A stretch of 64,000 nucleotides of DNA from Thermodesulfobacteriota bacterium. GTDB lineage: Bacteria > Desulfobacterota_D > UBA1144 > Nemesobacterales > JAJCZQ01. A program made the translations under genes and the position numbers. Below, piece after piece: positions 2-51,300 of the stretch; position 1 is the first letter of the stretch; each line of letters begins with the position of its first letter. The stretch covers positions 1,536,001 through 1,600,000 of the forward strand of contig OZ244044.1 of NCBI GenBank assembly GCA_965215275.1, read 5' to 3'. Below the pieces are notes generated by a model. The model was given only the letters and a program-made list of their open reading frames with translations, made no database searches and was not told the origin of the DNA.

Positions 2-1426
2 TTGAATTTTAACTTTGTCACCCAAGTGATAAGCGGAACACCAACTGCTGCGATGCCTAAGACTGATTATACATGGAGAGCAACGGACAGAGACGGATAT
101 ACGGCTGAATTGACGTTCAGTATAACGATAACGGCCCTGTCCTTTGACGGGCAGGTACCTTCTTCTCCTGTTTTGTACTTGGCGGAGAGACCAGTAACAC
201 CGTTAACACTGCCTGCTGCAACGGGAGGTACTGCTCCGTATACTTACGTTCTGACCCCTGAATTACCTGATGGACTGGACTTTAACGATACCACCAGAGT
301 TATAAGCGGGACACCGACTGCTGCAACGCCCGTGAATACCTATACGTATACCGTTACAGACGCAGACGGAACTGAGACGGAGGTGACGTTCGATATTGCC
401 GTAGCAGCACACTTTTCAGGCGTTGAGATAGAAAGCAGGTTTTACACGGTCGGTACGGCGGTAACGGAAACGCTGCCCGAGGCAATCGGACATAACGGAA
501 CGGTAACGTACAGTTTAACTCCTGCCCCTCCTGCTGAATTGACCTTTACCCCTGCCACCCGGGTTATAAGCGGAACACCGACTGCTATACAGAAGAATGC
601 GAGGCTTTATACGTATAGTGCTGCTACCGGTGCAGGTGTACCTGCTCGAACGTTGGTGTTCCATATCACGGTAAGAGATGAACCGGACACAAGGCCGAGT
701 TTCGGCGGTGAGACGGTAGAAGATAAGGAATACATAATATCGGGAAGTCCGATAACCCCGTTCGTGCTGCCTGAGGCAACGGGAGGGAATGGAACGGTAA
801 CATACAGTCTGACTCCTCGTTTACCAGACGGATTGATCTTTACGCCTGTTGATCGAGAGACAAGCGGGACACTGACTGCTGCGATGTCTGAGACCGATTA
901 TACGTGGAGTGCCACGGACGAGGATAACGACAGGGCTGGGTTAACGTTCAGTATAACGGTGGAAGAGGACAGCGAACCGGCATTCAGCGTGACGACGATA
1001 GAAGATCAGGTGTACACGGGGGAAAGAATAAGGCTGCCGGTAGCAACGGGAGGGAACCCGCCGTTAAGATACAGTATAGATCCTCGTTTACCGACGGGAA
1101 TGAGATTGAACGAAGACACAGGGGTCATAAGCGGGACGCCCGCGAGTGCGTCACCTGCAACTTCTTACACGTACACGGTAACGGACAGGAATGGAGACAT
1201 GAAAGGGTTGACTTTCAGGCTCAGTGCAGAGGTTTCTTCTACTCCAGGACCAACAACAGGAAGACCAGGAACGTCAGGTAGTGATTCAGGCGGAGGTGGA
1301 GGAGGATGTGCCGTCTCAGATCAGAGCAGCACTGCTTCTGATATTCCCGGAGTAATTGCATGTCTGATACTTATTCCTGTATCAGTAGTGATAAAAAGGA
1401 AGAGAAGATCTCAGATAAAGACTTAG
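2..1426 (+). CDS. Surface protein paralog 1 (5' truncated by window): putative Ig (He_PIG-like) repeats plus Gly6-Cys/TM/basic C-terminal tail
   Basis: About 4.5 repeats of ~95 aa (LPxATGG..YSLxPxLPxGLxF...RxISGTPT...YTYTxTDxDG); C-terminus GGGGGGC-hydrophobic-KRKRR shared with paralogs 2 and 3. Confidence 0.85.
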   Translation: MNFNFVTQVISGTPTAAMPKTDYTWRATDRDGYTAELTFSITITALSFDGQVPSSPVLYLAERPVTPLTLPAATGGTAPYTYVLTPELPDGLDFNDTTRVISGTPTAATPVNTYTYTVTDADGTETEVTFDIAVAAHFSGVEIESRFYTVGTAVTETLPEAIGHNGTVTYSLTPAPPAELTFTPATRVISGTPTAIQKNARLYTYSAATGAGVPARTLVFHITVRDEPDTRPSFGGETVEDKEYIISGSPITPFVLPEATGGNGTVTYSLTPRLPDGLIFTPVDRETSGTLTAAMSETDYTWSATDEDNDRAGLTFSITVEEDSEPAFSVTTIEDQVYTGERIRLPVATGGNPPLRYSIDPRLPTGMRLNEDTGVISGTPASASPATSYTYTVTDRNGDMKGLTFRLSAEVSSTPGPTTGRPGTSGSDSGGGGGGCAVSDQSSTASDIPGVIACLILIPVSVVIKRKRRSQIKT

Positions 1427-1820: not shown

Positions 1821-2309
1821 CTATCTCGGATAAATTATAGTTCCCTTAGATTTAGCCCATCTTTCAGTAAACCCTACATGTGATATATCATTACTACTTC
1901 TATCCAGTTGTCTTTCTGTTTCTTTAACTACTATTTCTGGTTCTAATTCATATATTACTTTTACTCTTGTCTGATCATATTCATAAAAAATAGCTAAATA
2001 TATTTTACTATTTCTCCTTATACGATTTAGAGATTCCTGTCTTTTATCAGGAGGAGATTTAAACATCCTGTCTAACTGACCCGTGCCACCTTCCTTACAA
2101 GACAAATATTCATAAACTATATTATGATCTTTAAAATCTCTGGCATCTGCATCTCTTTTACTGTGTATAAGTTCATGTCCCAATAAATCAGCTATTATCA
2201 TCTCTTTAACTAATCCAGGTTGTAGTAAATTATATATACCCATTGATTTGGCAAGATCAGCTGCTTTTAACACTAAATCTATTATCCTGCGATAGATGTT
2301 AGATGCCAT
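1821..2309 (-). CDS. PvuII-like type II restriction endonuclease
   Basis: 162 aa; blocks DLAKSMGIYNLLQ, IYELEP and KGTIIY resemble R.PvuII DLALKHGINDIFQ, IYRLEP and HGTKIY (recalled sequence); overlaps the MTase 3' end. Confidence 0.65.
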   Translation of the reverse strand: MASNIYRRIIDLVLKAADLAKSMGIYNLLQPGLVKEMIIADLLGHELIHSKRDADARDFKDHNIVYEYLSCKEGGTGQLDRMFKSPPDKRQESLNRIRRNSKIYLAIFYEYDQTRVKVIYELEPEIVVKETERQLDRSSNDISHVGFTERWAKSKGTIIYPR

Positions 2310-3088
2310 TCTATCTCCTCTTTATATTCTGAATTTATTCTGGATCTAGATAAATCAATATATCTATCATTAATTTCAAAAGCTATAAAATCCCTTTTGT
2401 AATTTTCACATACTACAGCTGTAGTTCCTACACCTGAAAATGGATCAAGCACAACATCACCTTCATTAGAACTTGCAAGAACTAATCTTTCTATTAACTT
2501 CTCTGGCTTTTGTATGGTATTAAGAAGTTCTCTTGATATTAACTCTTTTGATTTATAGGTTAATTGTTTAACATCTCCCCATACATCACCTGGATTCTTG
2601 CCTTTAGTATTAAACTTAGTTTTATTAAATTTTCCATTAGTTACAGAGGGAACATTTTCACATCTTTGTCTATGTGTTAGTTCTACTAACTGTGGAACTC
2701 TGATATCATCTAAATTAAAACATTTTGCTTGTTTACCTTTAACAAAGTAATAGATAATATCGTAATTGTTTGTGTATTTTAGTTTACCTTGAGATAACCT
2801 GCTTGGCTGGTACCATATTATTTTAGATTTACAGTTTAAATATTTTCTATAATCTACAAAATCCAAACAATCAGGTTTACCGAACAAATATAAAGTTCCG
2901 CCTGTTTTTAATTTAGGTTCAAATTTCTTTAACAGATTAAGATTAAACTTTTGAATACTTGGAATACGGTCCCAATCATTATCAGTAACTCCGTAAGGAC
3001 CATCACATATAATTAAGTCAATAGATTTATCGTCTACTTTCTTGATTAAATCTAACGCATCCCCACAGTAAAATTCGTTTAATTTCAT
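2282..3088 (-). CDS. Beta-class amino (N4-C/N6-A) DNA methyltransferase
   Basis: Motif IV variant DGPY near the N-terminus, QKPEKLIERLV, motif I VLDPFSGVGTT near the C-terminus. Confidence 0.9.
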   Translation of the reverse strand: MKLNEFYCGDALDLIKKVDDKSIDLIICDGPYGVTDNDWDRIPSIQKFNLNLLKKFEPKLKTGGTLYLFGKPDCLDFVDYRKYLNCKSKIIWYQPSRLSQGKLKYTNNYDIIYYFVKGKQAKCFNLDDIRVPQLVELTHRQRCENVPSVTNGKFNKTKFNTKGKNPGDVWGDVKQLTYKSKELISRELLNTIQKPEKLIERLVLASSNEGDVVLDPFSGVGTTAVVCENYKRDFIAFEINDRYIDLSRSRINSEYKEEIEWHLTSIAG

Positions 3089-3090
3089 TT

Positions 3091-4029
3091 CTAACTGATC
3101 AATTCTTTGTATTTAAGATGCTTACCTGACAAACCTTTAATAACTTTTTCGATCTGATTCATAGTATGTAAAGGACGGATGTTATGCCTGCCCGCATACT
3201 CATCTACATAGCGTTGTAGATGTTTCCTGCTCATGTAGTGGTATATCCCAGTATGTCCTCTTTTCAGCATAGACCAGAAACTTTCCATCCCGTTGGTATG
3301 TGCCTGTTCCTTGATATATTCACCTACTCCGTGATTAACTGTCTTGTGTTTATACCCTTTTTTATTCAGTCCACTATATCCTAAATTCTCATCTGTATAG
3401 ATCGTTGATCCGTCTTGAACTGTTTCCTTAATCATATTTTGCAGTTCATCCTTCTTAACGGTTTCTGTTACTTTTGCTTTAACCTTCTTATCTACTCTTG
3501 ACTTAATACCTACTACGGCAGATTTAGTTTTAGTACTTCTGCCCTGTGTTCCCTTCACTTTTTTACTGGCATGCTTGTTTCTCTCAAGTCCGCCAACATA
3601 AGTCTCATCCATCTCTATTGGTGACATTAAAGGATTATCTGATTGCTCGTCAAATACCTTCCTTATTCGGTGTCCTAAATACCAGGCTGTCGTTTGAGTA
3701 ACTCCTATATCTCTTGCCAACTTATGACTGGATACTCCCTTTAAGTTGGTAGTCATCAAATATATAGCTAATAACCATTGATGCAAAGATAAATTACTAC
3801 CTTCAAATACAGTGCCTGTTCTGACACTAAATCGTTTATCACAATCTTTACACCTATAAGGCATGGTAGCATGTTTAGCTTTAGAAGTTCTTACACTTCC
3901 ACAACGAGGGCAACATTTATACTCATTATCTTCACCCCAGAGCATCTTCTCAATATGTTTTCTTGCTGATTCCTCGTCTGGAAACATTTTATTAAAATCA
4001 TATAAACTAACTTTTTTTCTATGTGCCAT
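3091..4029 (-). CDS. IS1595-family (ISXO2-like) DDE transposase
   Basis: Zn ribbon CPRCG..YRCKDC, HTH, EMDETYVGG, IYTDE, VNH, HTNGMESFWSMLKR, YVDEYAGRHN. Confidence 0.95.
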   Translation of the reverse strand: MAHRKKVSLYDFNKMFPDEESARKHIEKMLWGEDNEYKCCPRCGSVRTSKAKHATMPYRCKDCDKRFSVRTGTVFEGSNLSLHQWLLAIYLMTTNLKGVSSHKLARDIGVTQTTAWYLGHRIRKVFDEQSDNPLMSPIEMDETYVGGLERNKHASKKVKGTQGRSTKTKSAVVGIKSRVDKKVKAKVTETVKKDELQNMIKETVQDGSTIYTDENLGYSGLNKKGYKHKTVNHGVGEYIKEQAHTNGMESFWSMLKRGHTGIYHYMSRKHLQRYVDEYAGRHNIRPLHTMNQIEKVIKGLSGKHLKYKELIS

Positions 4030-4209: not shown

Positions 4210-6999
4210 TTACTGTACGGGGTTTACCGTATATGTGCAGGAGACCTGTTCATTGAGCCTGTAGTTCCTGCAACCCCAGAACGTTCCGTAAGGACCTTTT
4301 CTTTCTACCATATCTGCACCACAAAGCTGACAAATGGGGACCTTCATATCGCACTGCGGATCCGTACAGACCCTAATTTCCTCCAGCCGCTTCATAGGGT
4401 TACCACACTTTACACAGCCACTTTCGAACTCTTCCATTTCAATGGGATAATTTTCCCTTATCAGCTCTACTACGAAATCAGATGCTATATTCCTGTTGTA
4501 ATTACAGATCAGATAGACGCGATACCGGGCTCTTGTGAGTGCCACGTAAAATAAACGACGTTCTTCGGCGTATAGGAAGGATTCTGACTTTGGCAGAAAG
4601 GACTCGAGCAGTGGATGCGTGCTCTTTTGTGATGGAAATCCATATTCTCCAGATTGCAAGTTCAGCACAACGACAAAATCAGCTTCCTTACCTTTGGAAC
4701 CGTGTATCGTCATAGCAGAAACAGATAGATCGGGATGGTCTTTATCCAGCTTTTTTAACGTTTGATCACTTGGGAGGTCAAACCGAAATCTGCTCAGAAA
4801 GTATACCGTGCTGCTTTTTTCCACGTGAGAAGAGATCTTATTGAGGACTTCTTGCAATATGGGGTCTAATTCAGAACTATCTTCAGTGGTTGCATAGTTT
4901 GTTCTCAGAATGGAAATTGCTGGTTGTTCAGCTACGGTGTGCGTTGATAACGTTTTTTGGATCTGAGCCGGATTTTTCAGAATAAATTTAGACGTAACAT
5001 CACAGATACTGTTATTGAATCTGAACGTTTTGTCTAACCTCGTTATCTTGGTTGCACCAAATTCGTCAGCAAATTGAGTAATAAATGCAATGTCACTGCC
5101 GGTAAATCGATAAATAGACTGCCAGTCATCTCCGACGCAGAAAAGGGAGCAGTCATCTGCGGAATCTCTCAATGCCTTGATCAGTCTTGCCCGGGGATCT
5201 GATATATCCTGAAATTCATCAACAAGTATATATCGCCATCTTGAATTAAATCGTCCTTCATTGACGTAGGTGATGGCACGGCCGATCATATCATCAAAAT
5301 CGATCTGGTCTTCATCGGATAATTTTTTCTTGTAAGATCCAATTATAGGTTTAAGCAGATTTAATGCTTCTGATGCCTGACTTGGATCACTTGACCCCCT
5401 TATTACATCTGCAATTTGCTCCTCCTCAAAGTGACAGGCATTGTACAACTGCAGGAACTGCGTTAGTAATTTGGCGAATTCACTTATTGCACCAAAATCC
5501 TTGAGATCTTTCAGAACGTTCTCAGAAGACCGGGGATTAAATGTGACGCCTGCCCTTTTAAGTTTGGTTTTGAGTGAACTTAAAAGCGAGTCTTCGGTTT
5601 GCTCATAATAATAGGTTTCTATTAGATGAGTGCCGTATTTCTTATGTATTTCACGTTTCCAGTTCATATCTCGATGGTATTTTCCCCGATTGACGTACGG
5701 TGGGGTGTTGCCATTTTTGTCTATACCAAAATGCTCAATATAGATCTCATACTCAGGTAAATAGAAATCTGGTTGGTACTGACGATGATCCCGTGAACGA
5801 GTGGAGTATTTATATTTTGCTTCATACCTGTATTCTATTCCAAGCTTGAAAAGACAGTTGGCGATCAGACATTCACCAAGGCTTTTTACCTTTTCGCCTT
5901 TAAGGGTCCTGATACCGTTAGCCTGGATATAGTTAAAGTATTCACTTTCGGATTTAAAGTCGAACGGATTTACCTGGGGATAAAGATAATGGTCAAAATA
6001 CTCGATTACTTTTTGCCTGTACGCAGTTTCCTGCATTTGTTCTTCAAACCACCTGTTCACGTGATTTGTCAGTTTTATATCATCTTCTGCCAGAGGTGAA
6101 ATTGAAGGCTGGACACCTTCTACGTCGGCAATTATATCCTTTCCCAGTTTGTGGAACGTGCTGGCAACGACCCCTGTTTTACCGAACTTTTCATTCAGGC
6201 GTTCCTGCATTTCATCGGCGGCTTTTCTGGCAAAAGCGAGCATTAAGATCTGTTCTGGTCTTGCCTGTCCGCTTTTTATTAAAAAACCAGCCCTGCTGAC
6301 CATAGTGCTTGTCTTACCGGTTCCGGCACCGGCAAGAACCAGATTGTTATCTTCGTCGGTAATACAGGCGTCTCTTTGTCTCTCGGTCAGTGGGTTTTCT
6401 TCAATGGTGTCAAAGTAATTGACGAACTCCACTTTCTTATCTTTTAAATATTTTTTGCGGCGTACCTCAAGTTCCTTTTTTCCCCAGGACGCTAATTCAT
6501 TTAACAATTTGAAATCGTCCATGTGCTGTTTTTCAACCGTGTCTTGAGGAGGTACTTCCTTGAAAATCTCACGCTGCCTGATCGCGATAGTACGGATGCG
6601 TTGAAATTTTGAACTGCGTAGATAGCTGTCCTGCTCTAAGACCGACCGCACTTCGGCAGATGCTTTACTGACTTCGGGTAATATCTTTCTGTAAAAAAGC
6701 TGCCTTAACCATTTGTAAGTATCTCTTGTGGCTTCCTTAGGCAGATATTCGAAGGACTGGGTTCCTTCACTGGTGTTAAAAGTAAGTTTTGCAAAAAACG
6801 GTCCTTCTTTGTATAGATTGGAGTTGTTGAGTTTCTCTATATCTATCTCTAGTGTTCTGCTTTCGTTTACGTGTAGATACACTTTATCATTAAGATGTGA
6901 AAAACCTATCTTCTGAGCTCCGAGGATGCGGGAGGTCCATGACGGTGAAATGACCTTCTCTGTTCTTAACTTTTTTGGGGTTGTTGAATTTGGCAACAT
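4210..6999 (-). CDS. UvrD-family DNA helicase IV-like protein with inserted PD-(D/E)xK-like domain and C-terminal topoisomerase-type Zn ribbon
   Basis: AGAGTGKT, DEFQD, VGDDWQSIYRF, TIHGSKGKE, EERRLFYVALTRA; insert KSLGE..PDFYL..IEHFG; CQLCG..KGPYGTFWGC. Confidence 0.85.
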   Translation of the reverse strand: MLPNSTTPKKLRTEKVISPSWTSRILGAQKIGFSHLNDKVYLHVNESRTLEIDIEKLNNSNLYKEGPFFAKLTFNTSEGTQSFEYLPKEATRDTYKWLRQLFYRKILPEVSKASAEVRSVLEQDSYLRSSKFQRIRTIAIRQREIFKEVPPQDTVEKQHMDDFKLLNELASWGKKELEVRRKKYLKDKKVEFVNYFDTIEENPLTERQRDACITDEDNNLVLAGAGTGKTSTMVSRAGFLIKSGQARPEQILMLAFARKAADEMQERLNEKFGKTGVVASTFHKLGKDIIADVEGVQPSISPLAEDDIKLTNHVNRWFEEQMQETAYRQKVIEYFDHYLYPQVNPFDFKSESEYFNYIQANGIRTLKGEKVKSLGECLIANCLFKLGIEYRYEAKYKYSTRSRDHRQYQPDFYLPEYEIYIEHFGIDKNGNTPPYVNRGKYHRDMNWKREIHKKYGTHLIETYYYEQTEDSLLSSLKTKLKRAGVTFNPRSSENVLKDLKDFGAISEFAKLLTQFLQLYNACHFEEEQIADVIRGSSDPSQASEALNLLKPIIGSYKKKLSDEDQIDFDDMIGRAITYVNEGRFNSRWRYILVDEFQDISDPRARLIKALRDSADDCSLFCVGDDWQSIYRFTGSDIAFITQFADEFGATKITRLDKTFRFNNSICDVTSKFILKNPAQIQKTLSTHTVAEQPAISILRTNYATTEDSSELDPILQEVLNKISSHVEKSSTVYFLSRFRFDLPSDQTLKKLDKDHPDLSVSAMTIHGSKGKEADFVVVLNLQSGEYGFPSQKSTHPLLESFLPKSESFLYAEERRLFYVALTRARYRVYLICNYNRNIASDFVVELIRENYPIEMEEFESGCVKCGNPMKRLEEIRVCTDPQCDMKVPICQLCGADMVERKGPYGTFWGCRNYRLNEQVSCTYTVNPVQ

Positions 7000-25097: not shown

Positions 25098-25127
25098 TTG
25101 ACATTCGTTCATAATACTTGGTAAAAT
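25098..25127 (+). promoter_or_regulatory. Sigma70 promoter of paralog 2
   Basis: TTGACA-18bp-TAAAAT with extended -10 TG; conserved at 43656-43685. Confidence 0.7.
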
Positions 25128-25173
25128 ATCAATGTTATGAAAAATCCAAACATAAAAACACGTAGTTCCATTA

Positions 25174-25182
25174 CCCCCCCCC
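25174..25182 (+). repeat. Poly-C tract 1 (C9) in leader of paralog 2
   Basis: Counted directly; the frame from ATG 25137 stops at TAA 25221-25223. Confidence 0.85.
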
Positions 25183-25243
25183 ATGTATACCTGACCTTTC
25201 AGCCTGGTATAAGTATTCTGTAAGAAAAATGTTTAAGATAATA

Positions 25244-25252
25244 CCCCCCCCC
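25244..25252 (+). repeat. Poly-C tract 2 (C9) in signal-peptide region of paralog 2
   Basis: ATG 25229 is one base out of frame with the main ORF; C8 or C11 restores MFKIIPPPSKSLLTLVLFLLFIISMAAKG. Confidence 0.85.
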
Positions 25253-25301
25253 ATCTAAGTCATTACTAACTTTAGTCTTATTTCTTCTGTTTATAATTTC
25301 T

Positions 25302-28300
25302 ATGGCTGCAAAAGGACAGAGCAGCTTAGAAGAAACATTATCTGAATGCAGAGGAATGAGTTCAGACACGGAAGATCCGTTATACGGATGTCAGTGGCAT
25401 CTGAAGAACACGGGGCAGTTAAGTATTTCCGGAAAGAGAATAACAGCAGGAGAAGATATAAACATAGAGGGAGTGTGGAACGAAGACGTATACGGTACCG
25501 GAATTAACGTAGCAATAGTAAGTGACGGTATCGACCTTTCTCACGAGGACCTTTCTGATAAGGTCCGTTCCGGACCGAACTATGATCTTTCTGACAGTTC
25601 ATCCTTTACCGGAACACGAGCGGCAGGTGTAATAGCAGCAACTGGATATAACGGACTGGGAGTAAGAGGAACAGCACCTGGTGCGAGTATATACAGTTAC
25701 GGGTTAACTGGTGATCTCAGGGAAGCGGACGCAAAAGATGCAATGGTCCGTAATAAGGAAATAACTGCTGTATCGGTTAACGGCCGGGGATCTGAGGAGG
25801 GAGCTTTTTTTCAGGAGGCTTCAACTTCCTGGGAAGAAGGAGTGGAACTTGGTATAAGTAAAGGGTTTTATGGTAAAGGTGTGTTTTACGTCCGGGGAGC
25901 AGGGGACGGGCATGAGAATAACGATCAGGCTAATTTTTCTGAATATTCTAATTACTACGGCGTAACTGCCGTGTGTTCAACAGACGGCTTTGGAAAGAAG
26001 AGTATATTTTCAGAAGAGGGAGTAAATCTATGGGTATGTGCACCTGGTTCTGATATTGTAACTACAGATAACAACAACGATTACGTTGTAACTTCCGGAA
26101 CATTTCTATCAGCTTCACAGGTTGCAGGAGTGGCAGCACTGCTGAGAGAGATAAACGGGCAGCTGAGCTGGAGGGATGTAAAGCTTATACTTGCGGGTTC
26201 AGCACGGCAGAACGATTTTTTTGACATGAGCTGGGAGACAGGAGCTGTTAAATACGGTTCTGATACGGAAAGATATAAATATAATCCTAAGTATGGTTTT
26301 GGCGTGGTAGACGCAGAAGCAGCCGCAGAACTTGCCAGAAGCTGGAAAGGCGTAGGTGAAATGAGGACCGTTACAGCTTCTTCAGATAATGAACTGACAA
26401 TCCCTGATGGAGAAGGAGAAGCAGACGGTGTCCTTGTCTCCAGACTTATGATACCGGACCTGGAAGAAACAACATTTACGGAGTTTGTAGAAGTAGAACT
26501 TGTTTTCTCGTGTGACTGCTTACAGGACCTTAATATACAGATAACCTCTCCTTCCGGGACAGTGTCTGAACTTGTGCGGGAGTTTGCCGGGGAGTCTGTA
26601 AGTGGATCTTCAAATGAAGAAGAAAACTGCGTCAGTTACCTGAGAAGAACACATCGTTTCGGGTCGGCTAAACACCTCGGAGAAGACCCTTCCGGAGAAT
26701 GGATCCTTAAGATCTCCGATACTGCTTCCGGAGATGAAGAAGATGGAAAAAACACTGTTACCTTACACTCATGGAGCGTTAAGGTGTATGGGAATTTTTA
26801 TCAGGGACATGGCAGTGAGACAGGTACTAAACATCATGAAATAACCTTTGGTGGTGCAACGATAGATAATCAAGTATATAAAGTAGGTAAAACAATAACA
26901 CCATTAGAGCTACCTAACGCAACAAGAACAGGAGGGGGTACTTTCAGTCTTGCATTGTCTCCTCGTTTATTACCTGCTGGATTGAGTCGTAACGGCAGAA
27001 CTATAAGTGGAACACCAACTGCACCGAAGCAAGAGACTACTTATAGATGGATTGCTTCTATAGGACATGATAATACTGAGATAAGGTTCAACATCACGGT
27101 AGAAGCTAACACAGAACCCACCTTCTCAGGAGCAACTGTCCCAGATCAGATATGGACGGAAGGGGTAAGGATACCAACGTTACGTCTTCCTAATGCAACA
27201 GGAGGTAACGGAACTTTAACATACTTTTTAAGTCCTTCGCAGCCAGTTGGTATAAACAGACAGGACAACAGGTTATCCGGAACACCTACGGAACCTAAAG
27301 GAAGAACTCGTCATACATGGACAGTCAGAGACGAAGATGGTGATGAAGATATTATTGAGTTCTATATTACTGTAAGAGATAAAGATGACGTACCGAGCTT
27401 CGGCAGTGAGACTGTAGAAGATCAGGTGTATGTTGTACGCTCAATAGCAGGTCTTCCAGTAACTCTGCCAGAGGCAACGGGAGGGAATGGAGCATTAACT
27501 TACATTTTACTTCCTTTTTTACCTCGTGGATTGAATTTTGATCCTGACACCCGAGTAATAAGTGGCACACCCACCCGTGCATCCCCTATTAGGAATATGA
27601 TACATACAGTATCAGACATAGATGGAAGTAGTGCTCAATTAGAGTTCAGGATAACAGTAGAACCAAACACGGAACCAACCTTCGGCAATGAAACTATAGA
27701 TAATAAGGTGTACATTAACGGCATTACAGCAGTAATGGAAACACTGCCTGAAGCAACGTCAGGGAATGCACCATTAACTTACAGTTTAACTAGTCTTGGG
27801 TTAATTGATCTTAATTTACCTCGTGGATTGAATTTTGATCCTGACACCCGAGTGTTAAGTGGAACACCCAACCTTGACGCACACGCACGAATACTTCCTG
27901 TAACTCGTACATATACATATAAAGTAACAGACAATGATGGAGATACAGCAGAGATAACGTTCAGTATAACAGTAGAAGAAGACAGCGAACCGGACTTCAG
28001 CGGTGTGACAATACCAGATCGTGTGTACACGGGGAGAACAATAGAGCTGCCAGAGGCAGCGGGAGGGAATGCACCGGTTACTTACAGTATAACACCTGGT
28101 CTGCCAGCTGGATTGATATTTAACGAAGTAACGCGGGAAATAAGTGGGACACCCAGGAGTGCATCATCTGCTGCTTCTTACACGTATACGGCAACAGACA
28201 GGAATGAAGATACGGATACATTGGATTTCATGCTCAGTGTAGAGGTTACTTCTACTCCAGGACCAACAACAGGAAGACCAGGAACGTCAGGTACTGATTC

Positions 28301-28439
28301 AGGCGGAGGTGGAGGAGGATGTGCCGTATCAGAGCAGAGCAGCGTTGCTTTTGATATTCTCGGAGTAATGACATGTCTGATACTTATACCTGTATCAGTA
28401 GCTATCAGAAGGAAGAGAAGAGCTCAGATAAAGACATAG
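25302..28439 (+). CDS. Surface protein paralog 2: inactive kexin-like S8 domain, P-domain, 5 Ig-like repeats, Gly6-Cys/TM tail; real start upstream across poly-C frameshift
   Basis: DPLYGCQWHL, LSWRDV, YGFGVVDA, P-domain GEDPSGEWILKISD; triad positions read VAIVSDG, FTGTRAAG, SGTFLSA. Confidence 0.85.
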   Translation: MAAKGQSSLEETLSECRGMSSDTEDPLYGCQWHLKNTGQLSISGKRITAGEDINIEGVWNEDVYGTGINVAIVSDGIDLSHEDLSDKVRSGPNYDLSDSSSFTGTRAAGVIAATGYNGLGVRGTAPGASIYSYGLTGDLREADAKDAMVRNKEITAVSVNGRGSEEGAFFQEASTSWEEGVELGISKGFYGKGVFYVRGAGDGHENNDQANFSEYSNYYGVTAVCSTDGFGKKSIFSEEGVNLWVCAPGSDIVTTDNNNDYVVTSGTFLSASQVAGVAALLREINGQLSWRDVKLILAGSARQNDFFDMSWETGAVKYGSDTERYKYNPKYGFGVVDAEAAAELARSWKGVGEMRTVTASSDNELTIPDGEGEADGVLVSRLMIPDLEETTFTEFVEVELVFSCDCLQDLNIQITSPSGTVSELVREFAGESVSGSSNEEENCVSYLRRTHRFGSAKHLGEDPSGEWILKISDTASGDEEDGKNTVTLHSWSVKVYGNFYQGHGSETGTKHHEITFGGATIDNQVYKVGKTITPLELPNATRTGGGTFSLALSPRLLPAGLSRNGRTISGTPTAPKQETTYRWIASIGHDNTEIRFNITVEANTEPTFSGATVPDQIWTEGVRIPTLRLPNATGGNGTLTYFLSPSQPVGINRQDNRLSGTPTEPKGRTRHTWTVRDEDGDEDIIEFYITVRDKDDVPSFGSETVEDQVYVVRSIAGLPVTLPEATGGNGALTYILLPFLPRGLNFDPDTRVISGTPTRASPIRNMIHTVSDIDGSSAQLEFRITVEPNTEPTFGNETIDNKVYINGITAVMETLPEATSGNAPLTYSLTSLGLIDLNLPRGLNFDPDTRVLSGTPNLDAHARILPVTRTYTYKVTDNDGDTAEITFSITVEEDSEPDFSGVTIPDRVYTGRTIELPEAAGGNAPVTYSITPGLPAGLIFNEVTREISGTPRSASSAASYTYTATDRNEDTDTLDFMLSVEVTSTPGPTTGRPGTSGTDSGGGGGGCAVSEQSSVAFDILGVMTCLILIPVSVAIRRKRRAQIKT

Positions 28440-43655: not shown

Positions 43656-43685
43656 TTGACATCCGTTCATAATACTTGGTAAAAT
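43656..43685 (+). promoter_or_regulatory. Sigma70 promoter of paralog 3
   Basis: TTGACA-18bp-TAAAAT, near-identical to 25098-25127. Confidence 0.7.
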
Positions 43686-43731
43686 ATCAATGTTATGAAA
43701 AATCCAAACATAAAAACACATAGTTCCATTA

Positions 43732-43741
43732 CCCCCCCCCC
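43732..43741 (+). repeat. Poly-C tract 1 (C10) in leader of paralog 3
   Basis: Counted directly; keeps ATG 43695 in frame with ATG 43788. Confidence 0.85.
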
Positions 43742-43802
43742 GTGTATACCTGAACTTTCAGCCTGGTATAAGTATTCTGTAAGAGCAATGTTTAAGATAA
43801 TA

Positions 43803-43811
43803 CCCCCCCCC
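43803..43811 (+). repeat. Poly-C tract 2 (C9) in signal-peptide region of paralog 3
   Basis: Leads to TAA 43815-43817; C8 or C11 restores PPPSKSLLTLVLFLLFILVIAAKGQ in frame with 43915. Confidence 0.85.
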
Positions 43812-43914
43812 ATCTAAGTCGTTACTAACCTTAGTCTTATTTCTTCTGTTTATACTGGTAATAGCTGCAAAAGGGCAGAGCAGCCTGGAAGAAACATTAT
43901 CTGAATGCAGAGGT

Positions 43915-46900
43915 ATGAGTTCAGACACGGAAGATCCGTTATACGGATGTCAGTGGCATCTGAAGAACACTGGGCAGTTAAGTATTTCCGGAAAGGAAAT
44001 AACAGCAGGAGAAGATATAAACATAGAGGGAGTGTGGAACGAAGACGTATATGGTTCTGGAATTAACGTAGCAGTAGTAAGTGACGGCATCGACCTTTCA
44101 CATGAGGACCTTACTGCAAACGTCCGTTCCGGACTGAACTATGATCTGTCTGACAGTTCATCTTTTAGTGGGACACGAGCGGCAGGAGTAACAGCAGCAA
44201 CTGGATATAACGGACTGGGAGTAAGAGGAACAGCACCGGGTGCGAGTATATACAGTTACAGGTTATCCGGTGATCTCAGAGAAGCGGACGCGGTGGTCCG
44301 TAATAAGGAAATAACTGCAGTATTGGTTAACGGCCGGGGATATGAGGAAGGAGCTTTTTTTCAGGAGGCTTTGGCTGAGTGGGAAGAAGGAGTGGAACTT
44401 GGAATAAGAGAAGGGTTTTATGGTAAAGGTGTGTTTTACGTCCGGGGAGCAGGGGACGGTCATGAGAATAACGATCAGGCTAATTTTTCTGAATATTCAA
44501 ACTATTACGGAGTAACGGCCGTTTGTTCAACTGACGGTTTTGGAAAGAAGAGTATATTTTCAGAAGAGGGAGTAAATCTATGGGTATGTGCACCTGGTTC
44601 TGATATTGTAACTACAGATAACAACAACGATTACGTTGTAACATCCGGAACTGTCCTTTCAGCTTCACAGGTTGGAGGAGTGGCAGCACTGCTGAGAGAG
44701 ATAAATGGACAGCTGAGCTGGAGGGATATAAAGCTTATACTTGCGGGTTCAGCACGGCAGAACGATTTTTTTGATATGAGCTGGGAGACTGGAGCTGTTA
44801 AATACGGTTCTGATACGGAAAGATATAAATATAATCCTAAGTATGGTTTTGGCGTGGTAGACGCAGAAGCAGCTGCAGAACTTGCAAAAAGCTGGAAAGG
44901 CGTTGGAGAGATGAGGACCATTACAGCTTCTTCAGATAATGAGATAACAATTCCTGATGGAGAAGGAGATGGAGAAGGAGAAGCAGACGGGATCCTTGTT
45001 TCCAGACTTATGATACCGGACCTTGAAGAAATATTTACGGAATTCGTTGAAGTAGAACTTGTTTTTTCTCATGACCGCTTACAGGACCTTGATATAAAAA
45101 TAACTTCTCCTTCTGGGATTGTTTCGGAACTTGTCCGGGAGTTTTCAGGGGAGGAAGAAGATGCTGATATCAGTTACCTGAGAAGAACACATCGTTTCGG
45201 GTCGGCAAAGCACCTCGGAGAAGACCCTTCCGGAGAATGGATCCTTCATATAACTGATACTGCTTATGGAGATGAAGAAAATGAAGAAAACACCGTTACC
45301 CTGCACTCATGGAGCGTTAAGGTGTATGGGCATGTTTTTTTATCAGACCGTGGCAAGGAGATAACTACTAAAGCTTTAACCTTCGGCAATCAGACGGTAG
45401 AAGATCAGGTGTGGGGTAACGGCAGCGCAGTAACGTTAACTCTGCCTGCTGCTACCGGAGGTAACGGAACTTTAAATTACAGTTTAACTCCTAATCCACC
45501 TCTTGGATTGACCTTTACCCAAGGCACCAGAACGTTAAGTGGAACGCTCAACGTCAGTGGACAACTACCCGTAACTACTACTTATACTTACAAGGTAACT
45601 GACGATGACGGAGATTCGGATACTCGCACCTTCTCTATTACTATAGAAGCTGATACAGAGCCGAGCTTTGGAGGTCAGTCTATCCCAAATCAGCTATATC
45701 TTGAAGGGACAACGTTAGGTCTTCCGGTAACGCTGCCTGAGGCAACGGGAGGGAATGGTCAGTTAAATTACAGTTTATCTCCTGCTTTACCAACTGGATT
45801 GGAATTTAATCCTGATATCAGAGTTATAAGCGGAACTCCAACTCAACATATAGTTATCCCTGAAACTTATACATATAAGGTAACGGACAATGACGGAGAT
45901 ACAGTTAATCTGAGGTTTCACCTGTCTGTATTATTCAACACCCGGCCAATCTTTGGTAACAGGATGATAACAGATAAGGTGTATTATACGTTTACAGGAG
46001 TAACGGAAACGTTACCTGAGGCAGCACAAAATAATAATCCACCTTCAACTTACAGTTTAGTTCCTGCATTACCTGATGGACTGATCTTTACCCCTGCTAC
46101 CAGAGAGATAACAGGAACACCGACCACTGCAATGTCTGAGACTGATTATACGTATACGGTTGCTGATCTAAATGGAGATACGGATGAGTTAACGTTCAGT
46201 ATCACTGTATTAGCAGGAGCAGACACGGAACCGACCTTCGGAAGTGAAACTATAGATAACAAGGTGTATATAAACGGAGAAGCAGTAAATGAAACACTGC
46301 CTGAAGCAACGTCAGGGAATGCTCCATTAACTTACAGCTTAACTAATACTGGGTTAACTATTTTGACTTTACATCGTGGATTGGATTATACAGACAGAGT
46401 TATAAGTGGAACACTCAATATCAATACTCCAAGAATACTTCCTCACACTTGGAGTTATACATATAAAGTAAGAGACAATAATGGAGATACAGCAGAGATA
46501 ATGTTCAGTATAACAATAGAAGAAGACAGCGAACCGGACTTCAGCGGTGTGACAATACCAGATCGTGTGTACACGGGGAGAACAATAGAGCTGCCAGAGG
46601 CAGCGGGAGGGAATTTACCGGTTACATACAGTATAACACCTGATCTGCCAGCTGGATTGAGATTTAACGAAGTAACGCGGGAAATAAGTGGGACACCCAG
46701 GAGTGCATCGACAAGGACTTACACGTATACGGCAACGGACAGGAATGGAAATACGGATACATTGGATTTCATGCTCAGTGTAGAGGTTACTTCTACTCCA
46801 GGACCAACACCACCACGAGGACCAAGAACGTCAGGTAGTGATTCAGGCGGAGGTGGAGGAGGATGTGCTGTATCAGAGCAAAGCAGCGTTGATGAAGATA

Positions 46901-46983
46901 TTCTCGGAGTAATGGCATGTCTGATACTTATACCCGTGTCAGTAGTGATAAGAAGGAAGAGAAGAGTTCAGATAAAGAACTAG
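43915..46983 (+). CDS. Surface protein paralog 3: inactive kexin-like S8 domain, P-domain, 5 Ig-like repeats, Gly6-Cys/TM tail; real start upstream across poly-C frameshift
   Basis: N-terminal half nearly identical to paralog 2; triad positions VAVVSDG, FSGTRAAG, SGTVLSA. Confidence 0.85.
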   Translation: MSSDTEDPLYGCQWHLKNTGQLSISGKEITAGEDINIEGVWNEDVYGSGINVAVVSDGIDLSHEDLTANVRSGLNYDLSDSSSFSGTRAAGVTAATGYNGLGVRGTAPGASIYSYRLSGDLREADAVVRNKEITAVLVNGRGYEEGAFFQEALAEWEEGVELGIREGFYGKGVFYVRGAGDGHENNDQANFSEYSNYYGVTAVCSTDGFGKKSIFSEEGVNLWVCAPGSDIVTTDNNNDYVVTSGTVLSASQVGGVAALLREINGQLSWRDIKLILAGSARQNDFFDMSWETGAVKYGSDTERYKYNPKYGFGVVDAEAAAELAKSWKGVGEMRTITASSDNEITIPDGEGDGEGEADGILVSRLMIPDLEEIFTEFVEVELVFSHDRLQDLDIKITSPSGIVSELVREFSGEEEDADISYLRRTHRFGSAKHLGEDPSGEWILHITDTAYGDEENEENTVTLHSWSVKVYGHVFLSDRGKEITTKALTFGNQTVEDQVWGNGSAVTLTLPAATGGNGTLNYSLTPNPPLGLTFTQGTRTLSGTLNVSGQLPVTTTYTYKVTDDDGDSDTRTFSITIEADTEPSFGGQSIPNQLYLEGTTLGLPVTLPEATGGNGQLNYSLSPALPTGLEFNPDIRVISGTPTQHIVIPETYTYKVTDNDGDTVNLRFHLSVLFNTRPIFGNRMITDKVYYTFTGVTETLPEAAQNNNPPSTYSLVPALPDGLIFTPATREITGTPTTAMSETDYTYTVADLNGDTDELTFSITVLAGADTEPTFGSETIDNKVYINGEAVNETLPEATSGNAPLTYSLTNTGLTILTLHRGLDYTDRVISGTLNINTPRILPHTWSYTYKVRDNNGDTAEIMFSITIEEDSEPDFSGVTIPDRVYTGRTIELPEAAGGNLPVTYSITPDLPAGLRFNEVTREISGTPRSASTRTYTYTATDRNGNTDTLDFMLSVEVTSTPGPTPPRGPRTSGSDSGGGGGGCAVSEQSSVDEDILGVMACLILIPVSVVIRRKRRVQIKN

Positions 46984-47289: not shown

Positions 47290-47540
47290 ATGGTTCCCAG
47301 AATTTTCGATCATATGTGATAAACAGTATAGCTGGTTCTACAGGGAGACAACATTTTTATAATAATCCCCTAAAATTATTTACAGCACTAAAAATTACAA
47401 ATAAACAAATGATTGATTTACATAGCAAATCATCTGTTTTGTTTAACAAGGTAAGACAAGTTTTGGAAGAAACTAAAATACTACTATCTCTTTTGGATAT
47501 TCCCTTATCAAAATTAACCAAAACAGATATAACTGCATGA
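47290..47540 (+). pseudogene. Probable remnant of type I R-M specificity subunit (HsdS C-terminus)
   Basis: FRSYVINSIAGSTGRQ and LFNKV..ETKILLSLLDIPLSKL resemble the HsdS TRD end and conserved C-terminal helix; 5' boundary approximate. Confidence 0.45.
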
Positions 47541-48334
47541 CCATTGCCACCGGAACCATTCAATACCAATTAGGAACTGTGCCGGTCACCGGATGCGGTT
47601 TCTCTTATTCCGTTGCTGAATTGGACACAGCATTGTCCGGTTCCGTAGCAGAAATTTTACATGATGATTCTGGAAAGGCAGATATTAGGGCACTGCTTGC
47701 CGGGATTGTTGAAACTGATTTTGAAAAAGGCGAAATTGAACGGATTTTATCCAATACTAAACCGCCGGAAAACTGGCGTGTAGGTGAAGCACTGGCAGAG
47801 TCTTATTTAGTTCATCAAAAGAACTGCTTTTTCCCTTGGCCGAGTGGCCGTGACGAACGCAAGAGTGGTTCCAGTCTTTCCGGTGCAGACTTGATCGGTT
47901 TTCAATCTAACGGTACCGATGATTTTTTTGCATTCGGCGAGGTAAAAACATCGACTGAAAACAAATATCCTCCCGGAACTATGTATGGTCGCACAGGCTT
48001 GAAACAGCAGCTTGAGGATCTAAAATATGATGTACAAATAAAGGACGATATCTTTAGATATCTTGGCTTTCGTGCACAAAGATCAGCATGGAAAGACCGG
48101 TTCAAGAGAGCAGCAAAAAATTACATTCAAAGCAAAACCAATATTCGTGTTTTTGGTTTTATGGTCCGCGATGTAGAGCCCAATAAGGACGATATTCATA
48201 CTCGAGTAACTAAACTCGCCAAGGATCAGCACGCAGATATGGTGATTGAATTGCTTGTGCTTTATTTACCGCAAGACAGCATCGGGCAACTTAGTGATAA
48301 AGTTGTCAGTAGTAGACATGGAGGTGTTGTATGA
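47537..48334 (+). CDS. Hachiman HamA-like PD-(D/E)xK nuclease
   Basis: WRVGEALAE, GADLIG, FGEVKTS; ATGA-coupled to the Ski2-like helicase. Confidence 0.65.
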   Translation: MTIATGTIQYQLGTVPVTGCGFSYSVAELDTALSGSVAEILHDDSGKADIRALLAGIVETDFEKGEIERILSNTKPPENWRVGEALAESYLVHQKNCFFPWPSGRDERKSGSSLSGADLIGFQSNGTDDFFAFGEVKTSTENKYPPGTMYGRTGLKQQLEDLKYDVQIKDDIFRYLGFRAQRSAWKDRFKRAAKNYIQSKTNIRVFGFMVRDVEPNKDDIHTRVTKLAKDQHADMVIELLVLYLPQDSIGQLSDKVVSSRHGGVV

Positions 48335-51300
48335 ACGTAACAGAAGCATCTTTGGACAAAATTGATCAGCACTGGGCAGTTCAGGCCATTGGTGCCGAAC
48401 AACTCAAGCAGGCTTTTGAACTGTCTAACCGACTCTTCGTGGAAAAGACCGTGGGCGGTCAGATACATTTCAACTATACATTTTTACAGTCTGATTACGA
48501 GTTGCTCGACAGAGTTTCTATGGCTTACGAAATGGCAGCAATTGAAGGGTTAAATGATTTTCTGAACCCGACTTCCATTGAGAAGGAACTAAGAGAACAA
48601 TGCGCATCAGGTGCTTATCGGGCATTTGAAATTCGAAGGCTCTTTAATTTCCCTGCTACCAATGAACAACGGATTTTTCACGTTTTACACCTCTCGTCAT
48701 TGGCTTATTGCGGAGATAGGTGGACGGATCTACGCCGCTGGTACAACGAAAACGAAAACAGCATTCAGGTGCCTTCTGTTGCAAATGCCCCTTGGGACGG
48801 ACGTTTGCTCAATCGTCTGTTTGAATGCTGGATTCGGCTTTTCAGAAAAAAACGCTGGGACGACCTGGACCGTATCCGCGAGATCATTGCCGGGCTTAGA
48901 GAAGATCAGAAACAGTATGAGGCTGGAGTTCTGAACGAACCCAGTAATGCTGAAAACCACACTATGGCACTACGGCTCATAAGTCTGTATCACTGGGCCA
49001 AAGCTACGGAAATTCTAGCTAAATATATGCTGCAAGGTGAACCGGCCAGTGTTGCCACTTTGTTGAACAAACATTTTGAATCAGCTATCGAATCCTCTGC
49101 AGACAGTGCCGACTCACAACTCGAAATATTGTTAAGGTGGTTGCAAATTGCAAGTCGTCAGATGATCACTGATTCCATCTGGTGGGTCGCAAGTCGAATC
49201 AATACCCGCGTCACAAAATTTATAAATGAAGTAACCAAGCAGCAGGCTTTGTTCGAATTATTACCGCCGCAGCGAGCTGCTATTCAGGAACATGGGTTGC
49301 TTGATCAAGCTGCAACCGCCATCGTTGTTGATATGCCAACCTCGGGTGGTAAAACATTGCTTGCTCAGTTCCGAATATTGCAGACTCTCAATCAGTTTAG
49401 TCAAGATGAATTAGATAAAGGATGGGTGGCTTATGTGGCCCCGACAAAAGCTCTTACCGCACAAATAACTCGAAGCCTCAGACGTGATTTTGAACCAATC
49501 GGGGTAAAGGTTGAGCAACTCACTGGAGCCATTGAGATTGATACTTTTGAGGAAGACCTTTTAGCACAGACAGAAAAAACTGATGCCTTCGATGTTTTAG
49601 TCGCTACGCCGGAGAAACTGCAACTTATCATTCGCAACAAAAAGGTGACTCGCCCTCTGGCTCTTGTTGTCATGGATGAGGCTCATAATATTGAGGATGA
49701 AACCCGTGGATTAAGAATTGAATTATTGCTGGCAACGATCAAGGGTGAATGCAGCACGGCCAACTTTTTACTGCTGATGCCTTTTGTTGAGAATCCAGAA
49801 ATTCTTGCCCGTTGGCTCGCGCAGGATATCAACGCCGGGCGATCAATAAGTTTTGGAACGACACCATGGAAGCCTAATGAAAGAATTGTGGGTATGTTCA
49901 AGGCGGAAGCCGATGACTCCGTCAAGGCTGGATGGCGCCTGAAATATGAAACTCTTACCACCACGCCAAAGACTATTCATCTCTCAGGTGAACATACTGT
50001 GGGTGGAGTGAAACCTCTAAATTTCTCGAAAAGCAAAGTTCTGAAAAAAAACAAACAAGATAAAATAACTTGGCAGACTGCGGCAATGGCTCGAATTATG
50101 TCTGATCGTGGAACAAGTATTGCTGTAGCCAATAATACCGACTGGGTTTGGAACATGGCTCGAAAAATTTGTGAGACCTTGGAACCATTCAATTCGCTTC
50201 CTAATGAAATCTTGCTGGTCCAGAATTTTCTTCGAACAGAAATAAGCACTAATTTTGAACTTATCAATATGCTCTCTCATGGTGTAGGGGTTCATCATGC
50301 CGGACTGTCCGATGAAGTTAGAACCCTTATGGAGTGGCTTGCTGAAGAAGGAAAGTTGCGGGTGCTTTGTGCAACAACAACTATTGCACAGGGCTTAAAC
50401 TTTCCGGTTTCATCCGTCTTTTTAGCTTCGAACAAATATCAATATGGGAAAGAAATGTCGCCTCGTGAGTTCTGGAACCTCGCGGGCCGTGCAGGTCGTA
50501 TGAAAAACGACAGCGTAGGTGTTGTTGGTCTTGCTGCTGGCAATGAACCTGATAAAATAATTGACTATGTATCCCGTGCAACTGGTGCACTTGCCTCCCG
50601 TTTGGTGATGATGCTTGATGAACTTGAACAGGCAGGAAAGTTGAATGAGTTGGAGGCTGTTTTTCAAAATGAACAATGGGAAGATTTTCGTTGCTATGTC
50701 GCACATCTCTGGAATGAAAAGAAAAACCTTGATGCGGTTCTTTTAGATACAGAGCAACTTCTCAGAAACACCCTTGGATATGGATGGCTCGAAAGCCAAA
50801 CTGATCAGAAGCAGAAAGCCGAAAAACTTCTGGAAGTTACCAAAGAATATGCTAGAACCCTCTCAGAAAATCCTGGACATGCGTCGCTTGCCGATATGAC
50901 AGGCTTCTCCCCAGAAGGTATCGGCCAAGCGTTAGCTGGAATAAACTCTCTGGAAAATAAACTCACGGTTGATGACTGGAAACCTAACAGTCTATTTGGC
51001 GGGCAGTCCGGCATGGCTGATCTCTATGGGGTTATGCTGCGGATTCCGCAGTTGAAAGGCAACCTTGAAGAGATTACCAATCGAGGACTTAAGCACAGCC
51101 AAATAGCAGACATTACCAAAGCATGGGTTAACGGTAAAAGCATTGAGGAGATCGCAAGAGATTTTTTCAAGGGTGATGAAGATCAGACAAAGGCTCTAAC
51201 TTTAGCGTGTAAAGCAATCTACAAAACTCTGGTGAATAACGGGACTTGGGGAATATCAGCATTAAGTCGCTTGTCAGGACTTGATTTTGATCAATTGTCG

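Follow-up and report, generated by a model that had tools for sequence, protein, structure and literature searches.

What use does a bacterium have for a furin-like protease that has lost all of its catalytic residues, and how is such a gene expressed? The question is raised by a gene on the forward strand at position 25302 of a 64,000-nucleotide stretch (the window) from a Thermodesulfobacteriota bacterium (contig OZ244044.1, positions 1,536,001 to 1,600,000). The original prediction, made from the sequence of this window, described a kexin/furin-like subtilase with a replaced catalytic triad, displayed on an immunoglobulin-like (Ig) stalk as a binding or decoy domain. On balance, our analysis leads us to regard the gene as one of 49 copies that are gated by poly-C tracts and encode a dead head of the kexin fold on an Ig stalk, and that together likely form a phase-variable surface repertoire.

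A kexin fold without its catalytic residues

The body of the gene has the following features:
25302-28439, + strand, body of the open reading frame (ORF), 1,045 amino acids; 25302 is an internal ATG
25374..26348, + strand, non-catalytic S8 subtilase-fold domain of the kexin type (Pfam, HMMER alignment, AlphaFold model, Foldseek)
25521..25523, + strand, Ser74 at the catalytic Asp position (HMMER alignment to furin)
25608..25610, + strand, Thr103 at the catalytic His position (HMMER alignment to furin)
25782..25793, + strand, substrate-binding strand, GRGS here and SWG[AP] in intact paralogs (alignment)
25905..25907, + strand, Asp202 at the oxyanion Asn position (HMMER alignment to furin)
26103..26105, + strand, Phe268 at the catalytic Ser position (HMMER alignment to furin)
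26349..26792, + strand, proprotein convertase P domain (Pfam, AlphaFold model)
26823..28247, + strand, stalk made up of five Ig-like (He_PIG) units with 36-55% mutual identity
28248..28439, + strand, tail with a Pro/Thr/Gly linker, a GGGGGGC motif, a hydrophobic segment and RRKRR; a candidate C-terminal sorting signal

Three Pfam families match the ORF above cut-off, namely peptidase S8 (E 4e-22), P_proprotein (2e-12) and He_PIG (2e-28). The order PF00082 then PF01483, together with the structural match, places the head in the S8B (kexin/furin) fold: the AlphaFold model, built on 60 sequences (pLDDT 81, pTM 0.89), is aligned by Foldseek with TM scores of 0.85 to furin (PDB 5jmo) and Kex2 (2id4) and 0.81 to ASP of Aeromonas sobria (3hjr). 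A Pfam alignment and a superposition on furin/kexin had been proposed as checks in the original prediction, and both agree with its view that the fold and the P domain are intact.

The Asp-His-Ser triad and the oxyanion Asn expected of an active S8B enzyme are both replaced. We assume here that the roles of the furin residues carry over to the 25302 protein through the HMMER alignment, which puts Ser74, Thr103 and Phe268 at the triad positions; the replacement of the whole triad had been claimed correctly, and the quoted motifs VAIVSDG, FTGTR, SGTFLSA and GAGDG and the paralog set are present as quoted. The change from Asn to Asp would not by itself abolish activity, since Asp at the oxyanion position is tolerated in PC2. 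No prodomain family matched the 25302 protein, whose head begins about 20 residues past the signal peptide. This lack had also been noticed, yet it is not special to the dead head: a PPC-like domain occupies the place of the prodomain in intact paralogs (E 0.0015, under cut-off), and the bacterial kexin ASP is described, in the part of the source available, as propeptide-deficient with an external chaperone (PMC5638518). Atlas features for the head gave nothing beyond ordinary convertase clusters.

A series of catalytic losses in one genome

The original prediction recognized three paralogs. A tblastn search with the head gave 58 matches at 57 loci in the 1.99-Mb, single-contig genome, and these loci span 176 kb, or 8.9% of it. 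By their catalytic columns, the loci fall into 6 DHNS, 1 DHDS, 1 GHDS, 10 DRDS, 5 DRDA, 2 DRNA, 1 N-DA, 1 SHDA and 29 [SG][ST]D[FV] copies and 1 copy with an N-terminal deletion. The triad is kept at 7 of the 57 loci and has lost at least one residue at the other 50, of which the 29 form a triple-dead clade; 6 of the 57 have a further break in the gene body. In a quick maximum-likelihood tree with 12 outside sequences, from which the N-terminally deleted paralog was excluded and which was midpoint rooted at distant homologs, the intact copies are basal, followed by Asn to Asp, His to Arg, Ser to Ala and finally the triple-dead clade (supports of 91, 96, 87 and 100). Recombination among the copies makes the fine branching unreliable; the order itself indicates that the catalytic residues were lost stepwise from intact ancestors.

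Outside this genome, 89 of 102 scored S8 domains are DHNS. Five of the 102 belong to close relatives in other assemblies, and P0021, P0024 and P0041 among these are dead-class; 87 of the remaining 97 are DHNS, so that the replacement of the triad in 29 of 29 clade members is not due to chance. More orthologs occur in other assemblies at 79-97% identity, the dead-class ones at 75-97%. No family match was found in four genomes of the same family (80-99% complete), the one from the same genus being 80% complete and in 190 contigs, so this does not amount to absence. At the order level, 8 of 100 genomes have one distant copy each; in the seven loci examined, the Asp, His and Asn motifs are present in most, C-runs are absent, and the Ser motif could not be resolved by the search pattern. 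A metagenome scan gave just four distant loci. Distant loci with names are mostly from Dehalococcoidia, and also from Acidimicrobiia and Ca. Porisulfidus, all of which are typical sponge symbionts, and homologs of the ParB protein carry the names Thermodesulfobacteriota or Ca. Dadabacteria at 53-68%; the present bacterium is probably sponge-associated and Dadabacteria-like. Five distant chains (P0031, P0035, P0037, P0042 and P0049) have two S8 domains, the first triad-altered and the second intact, which recalls the active-plus-dead fusion of CspBA.

Purifying selection, recombination and a remodelled cleft

The ratio of non-synonymous to synonymous substitution rates (dN/dS, omega) is 0.30 in 28 triple-dead genes (one with an internal stop was excluded from the estimates), compared to 0.45 in the six intact genes and 0.46 in the DRDS and DRxA classes. 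For the triple-dead genes, an omega of 1 is rejected at a cost of 292 log units (2dlnL 584), and pairwise counting gives a dN/dS of 0.27. Among the private substitutions of 24 out-of-frame triple-dead genes, 55 are non-synonymous and 51 synonymous, an omega-like ratio of 0.40 (p 3e-6), which is like the 0.44 of the in-frame ones. Simple decay, which the dN/dS check suggested in the original prediction was meant to expose, is thus rejected on the basis of the low omega, the rejection of neutrality, the pairwise value and the purification of off-frame genes. With the triad gone, the fold kept and purifying selection acting, the head at 25302 is by sequence and model a pseudo-protease, as had been proposed.

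Among the positions conserved in intact and outside enzymes yet altered in the triple-dead clade are the S-W-G cleft strand and neighbouring sites, in addition to the triad and the oxyanion residue. Some are polymorphic among the dead copies, and others are fixed in 29 of 29 (Gly199, Asp202, Ser265, Thr227 and Gly180). The substrate cleft of the dead copies is remodelled rather than preserved. A specific loss of the furin S1 aspartate was considered and dropped, as that position varies in intact paralogs too.

Across the 29 triple-dead heads, site incompatibility increases with distance, from 0.29 to 0.51 (0 of 300 shuffles gave as low a value), and the nearest paralog of the 25302 gene switches along its length; the heads are, judging from these patterns, homogenized by recombination or gene conversion. 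Insertions of short repeats also occur: the LSHED pentapeptide is tandemly amplified just past the catalytic Asp position in a triple-dead paralog near 401414, and several triple-dead paralogs have NSSE-type repeat insertions of varying length ahead of the His position.

The signal peptide is out of frame at poly-C tracts

Upstream of the body lie a promoter, two possible starts and two homopolymeric tracts:
25098..25127, + strand, sigma-70-like promoter, TTGACA-18-TAAAAT with an extended TG, 11/12 match
25137..25173, + strand, first ATG and leader (MKNPNIKTRSSI...), 10 nt past the -10 box
25174..25182, + strand, first poly-C tract (tract 1, C9), which is not in frame with the second ATG
25183..25228, + strand, inter-tract segment without stops in the frame of the gene
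25229..25316, + strand, second ATG and Sec-type signal peptide, broken by tract 2 (judged by eye)
25244..25252, + strand, poly-C tract 2 (C9), which throws the signal peptide out of frame

Translation from the second ATG gives MFKIIPPPI followed by a stop. Upstream of 25302, the frame of the body runs on as a hydrophobic stretch, and the equivalent leader in nine paralogs reads in frame into a signal peptide, called by eye from its basic N-region, hydrophobic core and small residues before QSS. Since the start of the signal peptide is out of frame at the poly-C tract, 25302 is an internal ATG, and the gene as assembled appears to be without a translatable signal peptide. The original statement that the ORFs are open therefore holds for the body and fails for the start, the signal peptide being out of frame at poly-C in both window genes; neither this nor the tracts nor the size of the family had been noted. 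The promoter element is also found upstream of most dead paralogs.

Two further family members lie in the window:
43656..46983, + strand, paralog with the same promoter, an out-of-frame signal peptide, five Ig units and the same tail
2..1426, + strand, third paralog, C-terminal Ig stalk and tail only

The former has a C10 tract at 43732-43741 and a C9 tract at 43803-43811, and its ORF at 43915 carries VAVVSDG, FSGTR, GAGDG and SGTVLSA, with Ser, Ser, Asp and Val in the catalytic columns. The head of the latter precedes the window and has a triad of S/T/V and a C13 tract.

By length, the C/G runs in the genome number 787 of 5, 78 of 6, none of 7, 6 of 8 and 133 of at least 9, and A/T runs fall off smoothly up to 9 without a similar excess. 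Of 139 C/G runs of at least 8, 80 have an S8 match within 900 nt downstream. In the His-less clade, each of the 49 genes carries a tract in the coding part of its leader; none of the six DHNS genes does, and their signal peptides are in frame. In the two intermediate genes, the run lies outside the leader code. Leader tracts are 8 to 13 nt long, and as in loci controlled by simple sequence repeats (SSRs), the length of a 5' coding homopolymer sets the frame. Read from the nearer ATG, 9 of the 49 genes are in frame (p 0.016 when compared to one third) and 40 are out of frame; 5 are in frame through every tract. In the automatic choice of starts, 28 of the 49 were in the +1 and 12 in the -1 state, although three were mis-assigned and belong to -1; programmed frameshifting in one direction is unsupported, as both states are present. 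An identical S8+P protein is encoded at 373235 and 1102405 behind tracts of different length, and just one of the two genes is in frame from the nearer ATG.

Two tracts in series are present in 28 of the 49 genes. In the frame of the gene, none of the 28 inter-tract segments contains a stop, compared to 27 and 25 of 28 in the other two frames, and the first ATG is the sole start in paralogs from which the segment is deleted. From this it is likely that both tracts are read in series, although use of the second ATG alone is possible and shared ancestry inflates the count of 28 of 28.

In one intermediate-class paralog, a G11 run directly precedes the start and a G13 run shifts the frame of the S8 domain itself (the pair at 518332-518344 and 518941-518951), which by its sequence amounts to another, independent means of gating. 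Some 59 of the long C/G runs in the genome are not near S8 leaders, and another multi-copy family has C9-C11 runs in a common context (19539, 20737, 31545, 1068992, 1899949, 1901573, 1914729 and 1964984).

A variable stalk and a Cys/membrane tail

The 233 Ig units of the family fall into 125 clusters at 80% identity, triple-dead genes have two to eight units each in varying order, and the best matches of the five units of the 25302 gene, at 56-91%, are spread over different paralogs. The stalks are the variable part of the family, and the anatomy supports the predicted display of the head on an Ig stalk.

The Gly-Cys-hydrophobic-basic tail is present in 63 ORFs of the genome. Two of these (627284-628603 and 1649106-1650047) share the promoter, the poly-C leader and the Cys tail of the family but carry a PPC-like N-terminal domain in place of an S8 head, which indicates that the display scaffold also carries other cargo. 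The tail scores under cut-off with JDVT-CTERM (E 0.04, 13.8 bits against 27) and Synerg-CTERM (E 0.37, 10.9 against 22.5). A single CPBP intramembrane protease is encoded in the genome (L041:1477-2121, minus strand), directly upstream of a DRDS paralog, and its best matches are myxosortase models, all under cut-off. A rhombosortase (GlyGly-CTERM) route was rejected, as no rhomboid was found in the genome.

Evidence for and against a phase-variable repertoire

We propose that slipped-strand mispairing at a C-run would activate a copy in a minority of the population. Its product would then be exported by Sec and retained by its C-terminal membrane segment, and its Gly-Cys tail would probably be processed by the single CPBP (myxosortase-like) protease for surface display. 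The conserved dead head could act as a binding or capping domain without enzymatic activity, and most of the sequence variety would come from the shuffled Ig stalk, which would also vary reach and surface. Constitutive protease activity would come from the six fully intact copies, which have no tract. Host attachment, or escape from host or phage recognition, is the likely purpose, and an adhesin or other binding role of the head is plausible from the anatomy of the protein. The best indirect evidence for reversible off-states is that out-of-frame genes are purified like in-frame ones.

Sequencing runs were examined for switching of the tracts. Five of 14 listed runs contain most words of the 25302 locus. 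At this locus, four runs gave unique flank matches without difference and a pile-up over the head, as expected for a gene with many copies, and indels near both tracts were not separable from paralogs. The comparison of contigs covered one 4.75-kb stretch with three tracts; contigs drop rare variants, and the runs may include the source of the assembly.

Several observations weigh against our interpretation. Contigs of runs X1 and X4 equal the assembly at all three uniquely flanked tracts, without switching, and those of X2 and X3 equal it at the one tract that they span, the X2 contig breaking just ahead of the second tract. Orthologs elsewhere mostly imply the same state, P0152 being in frame and P0154 and P0041 starting downstream (proteins only); P0142/P0260 are the sole ortholog hint of a differing frame state. 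Both mutS and mutL are present, so that slippage should be damped. The link between tract and triad is one gain on the tree and not 49 independent cases, and neither the tail nor the CPBP protein reaches the cut-off of any curated sorting system. Finally, the head is conserved rather than variable, unlike in classical antigenic variation; variability of the cleft is modestly raised (0.51 compared to 0.33 bits, p 0.025), and since intact copies behave alike, diversifying selection is not claimed.

Two other accounts of the tracts were rejected. A long-read homopolymer artefact does not fit, as the three tested tracts were reproduced exactly by other runs and A/T runs show no excess, and loss of mismatch repair is contradicted by the finding of both mut genes.

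Alternative roles for the dead head

The head could be a passive export, folding or capping module, with all function in the Ig stalk and conservation due to folding and gene conversion. Stalks are indeed much more diverse than heads, cleft residues drift, and two genes share the promoter, tract and tail but have no S8 head. However, omega is lower in dead heads (0.30) than in intact enzymes (0.45), several altered residues (Gly199, Asp202, Ser265, Thr227 and Gly180) are fixed in 29 of 29, and some dead classes are retained with no or one Ig unit, and we consider this account unlikely, although less so than the other alternatives. That dead heads regulate or chaperone active paralogs by heterodimerizing, like CspC and CspA in Clostridioides difficile, would fit the presence of active and dead copies in the same genome, the lack of a prodomain, the fusion of dead and active S8 domains in some distant homologs (P0035 and P0049) and the Csp precedent, as far as the available text of that source goes (PMC7200643). 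Such a role would not need 49 mostly silent copies with differing stalks, and dead and active genes are dispersed without operon pairing, which makes it quite improbable.

A decoy for host protease inhibitors, or a substrate trap in the old cleft, is about as improbable, if anything slightly more so. The fold and P domain are retained under strong purifying selection, and an inactive cathepsin paralog that binds cystatin is on record in the portion of the literature accessible to us, but the cleft strand has changed from S-W-G to G/D-R/W/L-G, Arg has replaced the second pocket Trp in 21 of 29, the oxyanion Asn is gone and a bulky Phe or Val stands at the nucleophile, all of which a canonical inhibitor sink should retain. 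The inhibitor sink of the original prediction is therefore weakened, and weakly contradicted, by a remodelled cleft whose strand and pocket walls are polymorphic among dead copies; the DRDS class, with one triad change and a nearly kept S-W-G-P strand, fits a decoy better than the 25302 gene does. Neutral expansion and slow decay, with C-run frameshifts as fixed silencing and gene conversion masking the decay, could be read from the 40 of 49 out-of-frame genes, the tracts unchanged in other runs, the extra body break at 6 of 57 loci and the lack of a match in the four same-family genomes searched. This account is already largely refuted and we give it very little weight, because omega of 1 is rejected, private mutations of out-of-frame genes are purified, dead-class orthologs at 75-97% identity exist in other assemblies and the tract lies at the same place behind a retained promoter in 49 of 49 genes. 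Least probable of all is a head that is still hydrolytic through a rearranged catalytic set, for which the conserved Ser265, Thr267, Asp202 and His204, in loops that by sequence lie near the old site, might be candidates. Against this, none of the three canonical positions keeps its catalytic residue, Phe or Val stands in place of the nucleophile, and the His position alternates between Ser and Thr; His204 is also found in intact copies and is thus not a new acquisition.

Implications of a gated pseudo-protease family

A bolder version of the phase-variable surface repertoire, which we hold only tentatively and judge to be somewhat short of probable, is that a furin-like enzyme gave rise in steps to a 49-gene pseudo-protease repertoire, which makes up most of a family covering 9% of the genome, that the frameshift switch was gained when the catalytic His was lost, that 28 genes are two-tract AND gates and that each cell presents few dead furin mimics, borne on shuffled Ig stalks, to an animal host. 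One genome keeps the active enzyme together with one-, two- and three-residue losses, with selection measurable at each step, so that the birth of a pseudo-enzyme becomes directly testable. The bacterial subtilase pseudo-enzymes that we found in the literature are a few single-copy Csp spore proteins, and large families of dead proteases were found only for eukaryotic parasites; no publication on the present furin-like family was found in the literature searched, which included few subscription papers and no supplements. The family points to pathogen-style surface switching, with a possible two-tract gate, in a little-studied and probably symbiotic lineage.

Other features of the window

Beside the second paralog, at 47537-51591, lies a two-gene unit of a 265-amino-acid protein without a Pfam match and a 1,086-amino-acid DEAD/Ski2-like helicase, presumably resembling a Hachiman-type defence pair. 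The AT-rich (31% GC) DUF2779 gene at 52078-53985 was probably acquired horizontally. A UvrD-family helicase (helicase IV-like) with a C-terminal topoisomerase zinc ribbon is encoded at 4210-6999 and adjoins an AT-rich stretch at 2000-4000.

Comparison with known systems

The arrangement of an S8 domain followed by a P domain is common to the 25302 protein, furin/Kex2 (S8B) and ASP, and ASP shares the lack of a propeptide. Unlike these enzymes, the 25302 family has no triad or oxyanion Asn, a remodelled cleft, an Ig stalk, a Cys/membrane tail, 57 copies and frame-gating C-runs. The tail resembles the JDVT-CTERM/MrtJ, Synerg-CTERM/MrtS and MYXO-CTERM/myxosortase systems in its Gly-rich motif, Cys, hydrophobic segment and basic cluster and in the presence of one CPBP protease, and it differs from these curated Cys-type systems in that tail and protease score under every cut-off.

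SMIPP-S proteins have the chymotrypsin fold. Those of the scabies mite are described, in the part of the source available, as a multigene set of inactive proteases with an occluded S1 that bind host complement non-canonically (PMC4031079). The likeness lies in multigene inactivated proteases of a host-associated organism and is an analogy of design only, as the mite proteins are eukaryotic, soluble and without repeat-gated switching. Closer in fold are CspC and CspA, bacterial S8 pseudoproteases with triad substitutions that, in the text available, coexist with an active paralog and act non-catalytically (PMC7200643, PMC6636752). These are single-copy spore proteins with a prodomain and a jelly-roll insert, whereas the 25302 family has a P domain, no prodomain, a surface anatomy and dozens of gated copies; the 25302 protein scores 21 bits with the NCBIfam CspC model against a cut-off of 675 and does not belong to that group.

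Neisseria Opa and Mycoplasma Vlp/Vsp are surface families with contingency-type variation. SSR phase variation is described at the poly-G genes of Campylobacter jejuni, as far as the accessible text shows (PMC8437040). Like SSR contingency loci, the 25302 family has a 5' coding homopolymer that sets the frame and is a recombining multigene surface family; unlike them, it carries a pseudo-protease as cargo, has 28 genes with two serial tracts and belongs to an uncultured, probably Dadabacteria-like bacterium. The family combines two known kinds of element, the pseudoprotease and the contingency locus.

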